A stretch of 31,802 nt of DNA, taken from positions 1-31,802 of the forward strand of contig JACCYS010000337.1 of assembly GCA_013696365.1 (NCBI GenBank), written 5' to 3'. Positions within the stretch are counted from its first letter, which is position 1. Each line of letters opens with the position of its first letter. This document shows positions 28,959 to 31,802 of this stretch, one piece after another. Source of the DNA: Nocardioidaceae bacterium. Its GTDB lineage: Bacteria > Actinomycetota > Actinomycetes > Propionibacteriales > Nocardioidaceae. The translations under genes were made by a program, and so were the position numbers. The notes under the pieces are model-generated. The model did no database searches and was not told the DNA's origin. It worked only from the letters and a program-made list of their open reading frames with translations.

Positions 28959-29264
28959 TCACATCCCCGGCTGGTCGGGGACCAGCACCGCGAGAACCAC
29001 AATCGTGGCACCCAGCGCGATCATCACCAGCACGTCCGACCCGGTGCGCCGTATGTGCAGCAGCCCGGTGTGCCGCTCGGGCAGCACGATCCTGGCGAGC
29101 GAGGCCAGTACTACCGCCGAGCCTACGATCGTCAAACCGACCCGCCACTGGTCCACCGCGACGATCACCAGGCCGAGGAAAGTCACGGCCAAGGTGAGCA
29201 CGACGACGAGCGAACCGTACGGACGCCCGGCCGGTCCCGGCCGAGATATGCCGGGTCGTGGCAT
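28959..29264 (-). CDS. DUF3017-like small membrane protein, 101 aa
   Basis: Three hydrophobic segments with [17 protein letters not shown]; position between folD and mdh; TGATG overlap with folD. Confidence 0.78.
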
Positions 29265-30118
29265 CAGCCGCCAGCCTGCTGTTCGGCGGCCTCGACGACA
29301 TTGGTGAGCAGCAGCGCACGGGTCATGGGGCCGACACCCCCAGGGTTGGGCGACACCCAAGCAGCCACCTCGGCGACGTCGTCGGCAACATCACCGACGA
29401 TGCCGCCCTGCACCCGGCTCACGCCGACGTCGAGCACGGCGGCGCCGGGTTTGACCATCTCAGCGGACACGATGCCCGCCACGCCGGCAGCAGCGACCAC
29501 GATGTCGGCGCGACGCACCTCAGCGTGCAGGTCCTGGGTGCCGGTATGGCACAGCGTCACCGTCGCGTTCTCACTGCGGCGGGTGAGCAGCAGGCCCAGC
29601 GAACGGCCGACGGTGATTCCCCGGCCGATCACGGTCACGTTGGCCCCTGCGATGGGCACGTCGTGGCGGCGAAGCAGCTCGATGACGCCACGCGGGGTGC
29701 ACGGCAGCGGGGCAGGCTTGCCGAGCACCAACCAGCCGAGGTTGGTGGGATGCAGACCGTCCGCGTCCTTGACCGGGTCGATCCGTGCGAGCACCGCGTT
29801 CTCGTCCCTGCCCTTCGGCAACGGCAGTTGCACGATGTAGCCGGTGCAAGCCGGGTCGGCGTTCAGCCCATCGACCTCGCGCTCGATCTGCTCCTGGGTG
29901 GCATCAGCAGCCAGGTCAACTCGGATCGACTCGATGCCGACCTCGGCACAGTCTCGGTGCTTGCCGCCGACATACCAGCGGCTGCCGGGGTCGTCGCCGA
30001 CCAGCACGGTGCCTAGACCCGGCACGACTCCGCGGTCCCGCAGTGCGGCGACCCTGCGCTTGAGGTCAGCCTTGATGGCTGCCGCGGCTGCCTTGCCGTC
30101 GAGGATCTGCGCTGTCAC
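29264..30118 (-). CDS. folD: Bifunctional methylene-THF dehydrogenase/methenyl-THF cyclohydrolase, 284 aa
   Basis: GTG start MTAQILDGK; [41 protein letters not shown]. Confidence 0.96.
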
Positions 30119-30192
30119 GGTCGCCGAGTCTGCCACGGCGGGACACCGGTGGATCACACCCGCCGCCGCTGCCTCCGCCATTCGCCCCCGAC

Positions 30193-30280
30193 CGAGTGGC
30201 GCAAATCGGCCAGACTGCCCGCGTGAGTGGCGCAATACGTGCGTGAATCGGGCGGCGTACGGGGCTTCTTGCGCCACTCG
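30193..30280. repeat. REP/REPIN-like inverted-repeat unit, left
   Basis: GAGTGGCGCAA at 30194 and 30225; inverted TTGCGCCACTCG at 30269-80. Confidence 0.85.
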
Positions 30281-30342
30281 ACCGGGCGGAGCCCAGGCTG
30301 GCACCGGCGGGCGGCGCCAGGGTCGACGCCAGTAATCAACAG

Positions 30343-30351
30343 TTGTCCACA
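30343..30351 (+). promoter_or_regulatory. DnaA-box consensus match TTGTCCACA
   Basis: Exact match to TT(A/G)TCCACA in the folD/nuclease-like gene spacer; single copy. Confidence 0.4.
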
Positions 30352-30439
30352 GGGGCGGCTGCAGCGGCCACCACCGGGGCCAACCTCGACCCACACTCAG
30401 CCCGTGGATCGGCAGGCAAGCGCTCGTACCCATCCCAAT

Positions 30440-31387
30440 ATGAGCGGCAGGCGGCGACGTAGCCGCGACTGGGAGTCACCTGCACACGGACTGCATGCGC
30501 CCGCTGGCAGCGTGCAGGAGATCCCGGCGCTGGCACGGGCAGTCAGCACGGTGCTGCCCGCAACCGCGGCGTTCACCCACCTCACTGGGGCAGCCCTTCG
30601 CGGCTGGGCATTGCCCGACCGGGTCCAGACCGATGTGCCCATCATTGTCAGCAACGGCGCACCGACTCCGCATCTCAACCGCCGCGGGGTCTACGTTCGC
30701 CGGTGTCACCTCGAGCCACTCGACGTCGAGGTTGTCGATGGCATCGCCGTGGCGTCTGCTGCGCAGATCCTGCGCGAGCTTGCAGAGGACTTGGCGTTGC
30801 TCGACTTGGTGGTGGCCATCGACTCGGCGCAGCACCTTGGTGACCTGTCGACCGAGGCGCTGGCGACTCTGATACGTCCGCATCGCCGCGGGTCGGTCCG
30901 GTTGATGCGGGCGCTGGCATTGGCTGACTGGCGCAGCGAGTCCGGGTGGGAGACGCTGCTCAGGCTCGTGCACGTGCTGTCTGGGCTGACTGCGGTCGAG
31001 CCGCAGCGCGTGCTAACCGATGCGTGGGGCACACCGATCACCCGGGCGGACCTGTGGCTGGTGGGTACGAACCGCCTGCACGAGTACGACGGCGCCCACC
31101 ATCTTCTCCCGCATCAACAGCGGGAAGACCGTCGGCGGGACAACGAACTGTTGCGGGCCCGCTATGACCGACGCGGCTACACGCGGCCAGACATCACCCT
31201 GCACGCTGCCCGGATCGTGCGCGATGCCGAGGATGCCTTCGGCCTGCCACACGATCCCCGGCGGGTGCAGGGGTGGCTGCGGGAGTATCGGAGGTCGAGC
31301 CACTCCGCGTCCGGGCAACGGGCCCTGCTCGAGCGACTGCATCGCTATCGCCGCCCGGTGCCGCCTCGGTCGACTCGCACCCGCTGA
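30440..31387 (+). CDS. AbiEi-like/DUF559 (Vsr/PD-(D/E)xK-fold) family protein, 315 aa
   Basis: [35 protein letters not shown]...HEYDGAHH...DRRRDNEL pattern of this widespread actinobacterial family; ATG 30440. Confidence 0.7.
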
Positions 31388-31441
31388 GTGGCGCAGAACG
31401 AGCGGGCAACAGCCCGCGGGGCGGCCATCTTGCGCCACTCG
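31385..31441. repeat. REP/REPIN-like inverted-repeat unit, right
   Basis: TGAGTGGCGCA at 31385-95 (includes the gene's TGA stop); inverted TCTTGCGCCACTCG at 31428-41. Confidence 0.85.
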
Positions 31442-31473
31442 CCGGGGCCTGGGCGGTCTGCCTCGAGGGGCTG

Positions 31474-31802
31474 TCAGTGGGCGAAGTGACGCACGCCGGT
31501 GAGGTACATCGTCACTCCGGCTGCCCGTACGGCTGCCGCCACCTCGTCGTCGCGAACCGACCCGCCCGGCTGCACCACCGCACGTACGCCGGCGTCGAGC
31601 AGCACCTGCACACCGTCGGCGAACGGGAAGAACGCGTCCGAGGCAGCCATCGAGCGCGCGGCCCGCGCACCGGCCCGGGACACCGCAAGCCGCGCGGCGT
31701 CGACCCGATTGACCTGCCCCATGCCGACGCCGACGGTCCCCCGATCCGCGGCCAGCACGATCGCATTCGACTTCACCGCCCGGCAGGCCCGCCAGGCAAA
31801 CT
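31474..31802 (-). CDS. purH: AICAR transformylase/IMP cyclohydrolase, 3' end (partial)
   Basis: [47 protein letters not shown]. Confidence 0.95.

Follow-up and report, generated by a model that had tools for sequence, protein, structure and literature searches.

Short palindromic repeats of the REP (repetitive extragenic palindromic) type cluster in the intergenic spacers of many bacteria, and some insertion sequences target them. To our knowledge, a partner enzyme of such repeats is known only in the case of the HUH transposases (RAYTs), mainly of Proteobacteria; we know of no explanation for the origin of many GC-rich palindromes of actinobacteria, nor of a function for the AbiEi-like/DUF559-like gene family that is the subject of this study. 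AbiEi proteins are autoregulators which bind inverted repeats upstream of the gene that encodes them, and no relative within the Vsr/DUF559/I-Bth0305I clade of nucleases is known to us to be framed by cognate repeats. DUF559 has been placed in the Vsr clade of PD-(D/E)xK nucleases (PMC3424549), and DUF559 genes are enriched among predicted targets of programmed inversion (odds ratio 14.3; table row in PMC9881135). Here we analyse a 31,802-nt stretch from the genome of a soil Nocardioidaceae bacterium (contig JACCYS010000337.1 of assembly GCA_013696365.1; "the window" denotes this stretch at its full length), in which a gene for a predicted nuclease of this kind, together with the repeats that frame it (the cassette), lies between folD and purH.

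We showed that the cassette represents a module which is widespread in actinobacteria, i.e. a nuclease gene situated between copies of its own repeat. Protein and repeat match each other, the repeats are scattered in the genomes that carry the cognate gene, the gene is under purifying selection, and the module has resided in the purH-folD spacer for a long time. The best overall explanation, to which we would give an even chance, is that the nuclease gene and its cognate repeat form a partnership resembling that of REP sequences and RAYTs, in which no HUH enzyme takes part. No published description of such a module was found in the literature searched.

The nuclease gene is framed by its own repeats

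The genomes compared are designated by the letter G and a number, G000 (2.63 Mb) being that of the window. The repeat units of the window (Table 1) agree with what had been read from the sequence alone: the arms, the 35-nt spacers, the identical 14-bp stretch, the third arm and the stop codon supplied by the repeat were all recovered. The core GAGTGGCGCA occurs, in every case as an exact match, on the plus strand at 30194, 30225 and 31386 and on the minus strand at 30270 and 31431, the 14-mer TCTTGCGCCACTCG is identical between the left and right units, and the first bases of the right unit form the TGA stop of the cassette gene (31385-31387). The two 35-nt interiors are unlike (57% identity when compared in direct orientation). 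The sequence-only reading had also drawn an analogy to REPIN/RAYT systems, which pair repeat doublets with a nuclease; the two units of the window look like direct copies and not like an inverted doublet of the REPIN type. The same arrangement was found in G005, and the framing units of G019 are inverted.

A single 10-mer arm is not enriched in the window genome (14 found, 11.5 expected). Paired arms lying 30-40 nt apart were found four times in its 2.63 Mb (with a spacing of 35-36 nt), compared with about 1e-4 expected from the base composition, and the reversed pattern was absent both from this genome and from the other genomes scanned. The paired arrangement lies far beyond chance.

Matching repeats are present on both sides of 28 of the 31 homologues examined (27 genomes). 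In the first set of homologues (12 genomes, 39-76% identity) 11 of 12 are framed on both sides by hairpin units of approximately 55-60 nt, and the twelfth, in G020, has a unit upstream only. The arms agree within one locus and differ between the lineages of this set, in which they read GAGTGGCGCA, GAGTGGCGCG, GAGTGTGGTCA, GAGTGGTCACTGG, TTGCGGGAA, (A/T)TGCGGGCAGACGAC, AACTGGCC and AACCGCTGAGCGG; in a maximum-likelihood tree, the closest protein pairs have the same arms. Relatives were never found to keep the gene bare (two uncertain loci excepted), which is in favour of the sequence-only reading.

The same reading had proposed to test whether paralogues of the gene are flanked by repeat families of their own, and this proved true for each paralogue in the window genome, whose three family members are framed by three distinct repeat families. 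The paralogue on contig C126 (L094:251-1054) has hairpins of a separate type (CGAGTGCGGTG...ACCGCAGTCG) on both sides; two additional half-arms lie upstream, and one more unit of this type is located on contig C18 (G000:C18:5036). The paralogue on contig C275 (L093:94-1029, minus strand) is framed not by hairpins, but by inverted arrays of a 22-nt tandem repeat, GATCCGTCACTTCTGGCGTGCC. Arrays of 2-5 copies of this repeat, some of them inverted around a short centre, occur at many intergenic sites on at least 12 other contigs of G000 (22 exact 12-mers, compared with 0.12 expected). In the complete genome of G033, four paralogues are accompanied by four different families of framing hairpins. 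The situation within these two genomes is a strong argument against a generic host repeat in which the gene merely sits. We also observed that the C126 gene may be frameshifted near its 3' end.

Distribution of the repeats

The arm families were counted across 41 relatives. Arms of the window type (A) number 4 in G000, 22 in G005, 37 in G019 and 1 in G021, and are absent from the 37 other relatives; B arms were found in G010 (11) and G017 (about 9), D arms in G008 (28), G011 (6) and G006 (2-3), and E1 arms in G033 (14). Each arm family is thus confined to, or concentrated in, its cognate genome, and reversed-pattern controls gave zero or, with the shortest pattern, single chance matches. The scatter is weak in G000 (4-5 units) and strong in G005, G019, G059, G008 and G033. 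A Y1/RAYT gene (PF01797) was not found in G000, G005, G019, G008 or G033, and the same search matched 6 control genomes; the earlier suggestion that the system does not rely on a RAYT holds for the five repeat-rich genomes searched.

The link between repeat and gene was also approached from the opposite side. Our prediction, made before looking, was that a genome carrying A-type units would also contain a homologue with such units on both sides. A-type units were detected in 19 of 151 Nocardioidaceae genomes (8 of 45 genera). Two or more of them are present in 17 genomes, and in 15 of these 17 they, or one-base variants of them, frame the closest homologue (42-76% identity). The other two are G064, whose contig stops directly behind the gene and showed no hairpin upstream of it, and G119, considered below. 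Two of the genomes in this study, G051 and G006, are unpublished; the bracketed gene of G051, as well as the empty purH-folD junction and the D-type and B-type units of G006, rest on them.

Three unit sites of G005 have no unit in G000. Neither target-site duplications nor clean boundaries could be defined at these three sites, as the spacers are too diverged from those of G000.

Contigs of the metagenome run X6 provided a further observation. Their depth over the units (30222-30315 and 31350-31443) is approximately 2.7 times that over the gene, and several contigs depart from the window exactly at the unit ends (30281 and 31441), which indicates that more copies of the unit exist elsewhere in that community.

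Architecture of the repeat units

Across genera, the outer 10-nt arms are conserved, and the interiors are lineage-specific and mostly self-complementary, e.g. G042 and G059 have stems of 20-21 bp, and the units of G110 and G119 form a nested palindrome. In the genus g44 (G110, G119 and G173), this nested palindrome is a 55-nt unit whose inner arms (GCCCGCCACTCG / CGAGTGGCGGGC) resemble the outer ones. The units of G019 share a consensus with an asymmetric core, GTCGACACGCG, which is also present in the D-type units of G008. Extra half-arms beside the units are common, being found also in G010, G019 and G000:C324. G019 contains, in addition, six gene-less doublets of approximately 260 nt, whose end architecture is exactly that of the G019 gene cassette (a unit, 7-9 nt, and an extra half-arm on the inner side); the interiors of these doublets have only short matches to each other.

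In G019, G003 and G005, the sequence bordering the units on the outside is often rich in C at its 5' side and in G at its 3' side, and contains simple repeats, among them (GGGGGT)n, (GGGGCC)n and a run of C16. These flanks could reflect either a target preference (for GC-rich terminator stems) or an insertion footprint. A search of the region against Rfam returned just chance matches of the microRNA type (E>1).

The cassette protein

The earlier assignment of the product to AbiEi/DUF559-like proteins was confirmed at the level of the fold, with the use of VIA-align and PADLOC. According to an AlphaFold model built on nine homologues (pLDDT 81, pTM 0.83), the cassette protein is a fusion of a domain resembling the C-terminal domain of AbiEi with a PD-(D/E)xK nuclease of the DUF559/Vsr/I-Bth0305I type. 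Residues 164-270 of the model align, besides the DUF559 protein 3hrl, with I-Bth0305I (3r3p, Z 10.0) and Vsr (1cw0, Z 8.3), and residues 30-163 align with residues 57-195 of the AbiEi chain 6y8q; the best Foldseek matches agree with these. Residues E167, S168, E171, R175, R202, D204, E215-x-D217-G218, H221, D230 and R233 are invariant among homologues of 38-76% identity, and include the acidic and His positions that would be expected for a nuclease of this type (D204, E215-x-D217-G, H221 and D230).

The window protein has no match in Pfam or NCBIfam, and DUF559 of Pfam appears weakly in 3 of 9 homologues (best E 0.031, below the cut-off); membership of the DUF559/Vsr clade therefore rests on the fold and not on a curated model. 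A profile search of the window protein against PDB sequences returned only PvuRts1I, at E 0.1. The AbiEi profile of PADLOC matches the window protein (E 1.4e-5), and the C275 paralogue matches AbiEi_1 of Pfam above the cut-off and AbiEi_4 weakly. The canonical winged helix-turn-helix (wHTH) of AbiEi_4 is visible in this paralogue, and its helices seem to be missing from the window protein, judging by eye and by the lack of an AbiEi_4 match. The family is large: homologues form 348 clusters at E<=1e-30 and about 5,400 at E<=1e-10.

The gene, its promoter and its neighbours

The features of the region are listed in Table 1. The cassette gene is oriented oppositely to folD and purH, and no further open reading frame (ORF) was found inside the cassette.

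Table 1. Features of the purH-folD region, in window coordinates. Residue numbers are those of P0001 (315 aa, from ATG 30440).
Feature	Position	Strand	Evidence
folD (methylene-tetrahydrofolate dehydrogenase/cyclohydrolase), GTG start 30118	29264-30118	-	Pfam THF_DHG_CYH E 5.5e-36, THF_DHG_CYH_C E 6.1e-58
Extra half-arm CGAGTGGCGCAA, 19 nt outside the left unit	30193-30204	+	exact match
Left unit, 57-nt palindrome TGAGTGGCGCA-N35-TGCGCCACTCG	30224-30280	no strand	exact match; single-stranded DNA fold -16.8 kcal/mol, z -3.8
DnaA-box-like TTGTCCACA, 9/9 against the high-GC actinobacterial DnaA-box consensus	30343-30351	+	motif scan
-10-like hexamer CACACT, 40 nt past the DnaA box and 6 nt before GTG 30404	30392-30397	+	promoter geometry
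Cassette gene, 327 aa, GTG 30404	30404-31387	+	ORF list, promoter geometry, 76% orthologue in G005
AbiEi C-terminal-domain-like region, residues ~30-163	30527-30928	+	VIA-align 6y8q AbiEi Z 7.8
DUF559/Vsr-type PD-(D/E)xK nuclease domain, residues ~164-270	30929-31249	+	VIA-align 3hrl Z 10.2
Right unit, 57-nt palindrome, arms and 35-nt spacing as in the left unit	31385-31441	no strand	exact match; single-stranded DNA fold -21.1 kcal/mol, z -4.0
purH 3' end, continues beyond the window	31474-31802	-	Pfam AICARFT_IMPCHas E 1.1e-14

A motif of the DnaA-box type precedes the gene in 14 of 17 loci, compared with 0.025 expected per locus. It has the form nnnTCCACA, of which the window has a perfect example (TTGTCCACA); G037 has TTATCCACA. 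The complete arrangement (the box, 37-40 nt, nAnnnT, 6-7 nt, and an in-frame start) recurs in 11 of 15 homologous loci, and because of this geometry GTG 30404 is taken as the probable start of a leaderless transcript. The alternative start at ATG 30440 would give P0001, and use of the long ORF beginning at 30227 is improbable. A comparison of the window gene with its 76% orthologue in the congener G005 gave a ratio of nonsynonymous to synonymous substitutions (dN/dS) of 0.16 at dS of approximately 1; as judged from these rates, the gene is under purifying selection, and the protein is therefore maintained.

Some further observations concern the surroundings. Just upstream of the folD start, at about 30119-30135 within 30119-30140, a promoter of the leaderless type with the arrangement TGGCAGACT-N8-GTG is conserved across all genera examined, which suggests that the folD transcript is leaderless or nearly so and starts just inside the cassette-proximal spacer. 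At G000:C6:1249-1280, a half-arm that stands alone (TGCGCCACTC) precedes, by 11 nt, an inverted DnaA-box-like sequence (TGTGGACAA); an unrelated ORF lies downstream of the two. A coding role of the motif TGTCCACAG was ruled out by eye, as G008 carries a stop in that frame.

History of the purH-folD locus

In 10 genomes from at least 7 genera (G000, G005, G003, G010, G017, G008, G097, G087, G059 and G091), the spacer between purH and folD contains the cassette, always in one orientation. The empty site that the sequence-only reading had suggested looking for was found in G021 and G006, in which the spacer is approximately 60-90 nt long. The closest relative by FolD, G002 (91%), contains a purH-folD remnant of approximately 400 nt with no intact gene; this spacer (G002:C181), in which degenerate arms (GAGTGGCGCC ... 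GGCACCACTGG) are present, has the appearance of a decayed cassette. The junction is rearranged in G001 and G004.

In the maximum-likelihood tree, the purH-folD copies of G000, G005, G010, G017 and G008 form one clade with G019, which fits long vertical descent. The same-site cassette of G003, a congener of G000 and G005, belongs to another clade (100/99 support) and must therefore have arrived independently or replaced an earlier cassette. Inheritance at this locus appears to be mostly vertical, the cassette of G003 being the one clear case of replacement by a different lineage. Contigs from four independent metagenome studies of soil or outdoor samples span folD, the cassette and purH, with 0-7 differences.

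What the module might do

The co-variation of protein and repeat argues strongly that the cassette protein recognises the conserved 10-14-bp arms, and we regard this as very probable. Each unit would present two inverted sites, to which the extra half-arms would add more; candidates for the surface that reads the arms are the Arg-rich N-terminal tail, the AbiEi_1-like domain and the basic C-terminal helices. The nuclease domain might then nick or cut at or beside the bound units, and subsequent repair or copying might keep the units alike, multiply or move them and, occasionally, move the whole cassette. That units are multiplied, homogenised or moved in this manner seems to us possible, at somewhat less than even chances. 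Still more tentative, and in our opinion rather doubtful, is the fullest form of this proposal, which would make the module a HUH-independent actinobacterial counterpart of REP/REPIN. Besides the cutting of the repeat by the nuclease, it supposes that the DnaA box, placed at a fixed distance from a leaderless promoter, couples expression to the replication initiator, and that shifts of specificity in protein and arms create new repeat families, several per genome. The cognate repeat recognised could in this case be a palindrome or a tandem repeat.

Several observations weigh against a partnership of nuclease and repeat. The family is almost silent in G000, in which we found the two framing units, two more full units (between dxr and gabT, and upstream of gatC), a decayed one 30 nt past the tuf stop, and stray half-arms. 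The gatC-upstream unit is common to G000 and G005 and the dxr|gabT unit to G000 and G003; the arms of such orthologous-site units are better kept than their interiors, and these two units of G000 are therefore old and have not spread recently. G003 retains this A-type unit though its own cassette bears C arms, of which there are just the two framing copies, i.e. a cassette without scattered ones. In G019, the richest in A arms of the 41 relatives, the A-framed gene has an early in-frame TGA, and no covariation was found at the four variable stem positions in 33 of its units, with no visible selection for hairpin pairing. The gene-less doublets of G019 could not be identified as deletion derivatives of the cassette, as their interiors have no significant DNA or protein similarity to it. 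The complete genome of G119 contains six A-type units and only distant family members, none of them adjacent, which means that the link between gene and repeat, though strong, has exceptions; units can persist after the loss of a cognate gene or occur in its absence. Of the 6 D-type units of G011, one examined pair (C3:733167-734023; direct, nearly identical, 806 nt apart) frames an unrelated gene, and the ORF inside was checked and rejected as a hidden member of the nuclease family. Finally, contigs of the four metagenomes contain no joint that skips the cassette, a weak negative result in view of the fact that contigs drop rare variants.

Three other explanations were considered. It is essentially excluded that a generic, REP-like host palindrome accumulates in spacers, one of which merely happens to contain the gene. 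The clustering of REP sequences in spacers and their use as targets by insertion sequences are well established, and the pair in G011 does frame an unrelated gene, but 28 of 31 homologues are framed on both sides, arm type tracks close protein kinship, and the prediction from repeat to bracketed gene came true in 15 of 17 genomes; the different families found for paralogues of one genome (three in G000, four in G033) largely refute this idea. Of the two main rivals, a sequence-specific regulator or insulator, with nothing moving at all, is rather unlikely. The arms would then serve as operators, and the palindromes in addition as terminators in both directions; autoregulation of the gene and its insulation between purH and folD would fall to the framing units, and the scattered ones would form a small regulon or be REP-like terminators or mRNA stabilisers kept by the host. 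This would agree with the presence of an AbiEi-like domain and the established autoregulation of AbiEi proteins through inverted repeats, with the location of the G000 units in promoter or terminator positions, with the conservation of orthologous-site units between species (arms better than loops), and with stem positions that vary without covariation, as might be expected of protein half-sites; the C275 repeat, a tandem 22-mer and not a hairpin, resembles an array of binding sites. However, a conserved nuclease active site would be superfluous in a regulator, and its acidic and His residues are unchanged among homologues of 38-76% identity. Nor does a regulator account easily for copy numbers of 2 to 42 among related genomes, for gene-less doublets with the complete end architecture of the cassette, for unit sites that are unlike between the congeners G000 and G005, or for arms that change among paralogues and lineages far faster than a housekeeping regulon permits.

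The remaining alternative is a free-standing selfish gene similar to those of homing endonucleases, targeting purH-folD and a few other spacers. The nuclease would cut cassette-free alleles, repair would copy the cassette in from incoming DNA, and solo units would be relics (e.g. of recombination between direct framing units that deletes the gene) and not products of mobilisation in trans. I-Bth0305I, a homing endonuclease, is among the closest solved folds (Z 10.0), and several features of the locus agree with such a gene: the same spacer and orientation in 10 genomes of at least 7 genera, an empty spacer in G021 and G006, a remnant of approximately 400 nt in G002, and a cassette of a different clade at the same site in G003 (100/99). 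The direct framing units of G000 and G005 would also leave one solo unit upon deletion of the gene. We nevertheless consider this explanation quite improbable, since most purH-folD copies belong to a single clade and appear to have descended vertically, the gene has been under purifying selection at dS of approximately 1 with no sign of recent transfer, and the repeats of G005, G019 and G059 would have to be the relics of 20-40 independent insertions per genome; among the G019 doublets no partly deleted intermediates were found.

If the pairing of nuclease and repeat is functional, it would identify the enzyme responsible for one class of repeats in actinobacteria, assign a role to the AbiEi-like/DUF559-like gene family and provide pairs of protein and DNA site that are diverse by nature and programmable. 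The purH-folD spacer, which contains the cassette in at least 7 genera, lacks it in some genomes and has exchanged it for that of another lineage in one, constitutes a clean natural experiment on the co-divergence of gene and repeat.

Comparison with known systems

The predicted inversion targets mentioned at the outset (PMC9881135) include DUF559 genes on account of the inverted repeats around them; the study lists these genes in one row of a table and does not describe the cassette. The inverted repeats behind this entry probably represent the same framing as that described here. The gene, however, has one orientation in all 10 purH-folD loci, so that there is no sign of inversion, and the units of the window look direct.

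The nuclease domain itself relates the cassette protein to the Vsr/DUF559/EDxHD I-Bth0305I clade (PMC3424549; PDB 3hrl, 3r3p, 1cw0), with which it shares the fold of residues 164-270 and the E-x-D-G-x-x-H motif, although its similarity to DUF559 of Pfam stays below threshold (best E 0.03). Vsr is linked to a cytosine methyltransferase; the cassette gene has no such link, nor does it lie within an intron. The location of the cassette in a spacer between conserved genes, empty in some relatives, recalls free-standing homing endonuclease genes.

The N-terminal two-thirds of the protein resembles the C-terminal domain of AbiEi/Rv2827c, from the type IV toxin-antitoxin system AbiE (PDB 6y8q, 1zel). 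AbiEi proteins bind inverted repeats before their own gene, and repeats also precede the cassette gene. In contrast to AbiE, no AbiEii/MenT toxin gene is adjacent, the neighbours being folD and purH; the wHTH of the window protein appears to be truncated and a nuclease domain is fused C-terminally; and the repeats flank the gene on either side and are also found at other sites of the genome.

The REP/REPIN-RAYT systems of Proteobacteria, also termed "REPtrons" (PMC3116915, PMC3337134, bioRxiv 10.1101/2021.07.10.451892), differ from the module in their enzyme, which is a HUH Y1 transposase and not a Vsr/DUF559-type PD-(D/E)xK nuclease with an AbiEi-like domain. The units described here are also distinct: they measure 55-57 bp, their outer arms are conserved and their interior varies with the lineage; one paralogue has a tandem 22-mer instead, and the copy numbers are low (2-42). 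Other features are shared. In both, a usually single-copy gene is framed by a palindrome that is scattered in intergenic regions, the repeat is specific to the gene lineage, and different paralogues have different families; both also combine long, mostly vertical inheritance at a fixed locus with copy numbers that vary widely and with gene-less doublets, which the module displays in G019.

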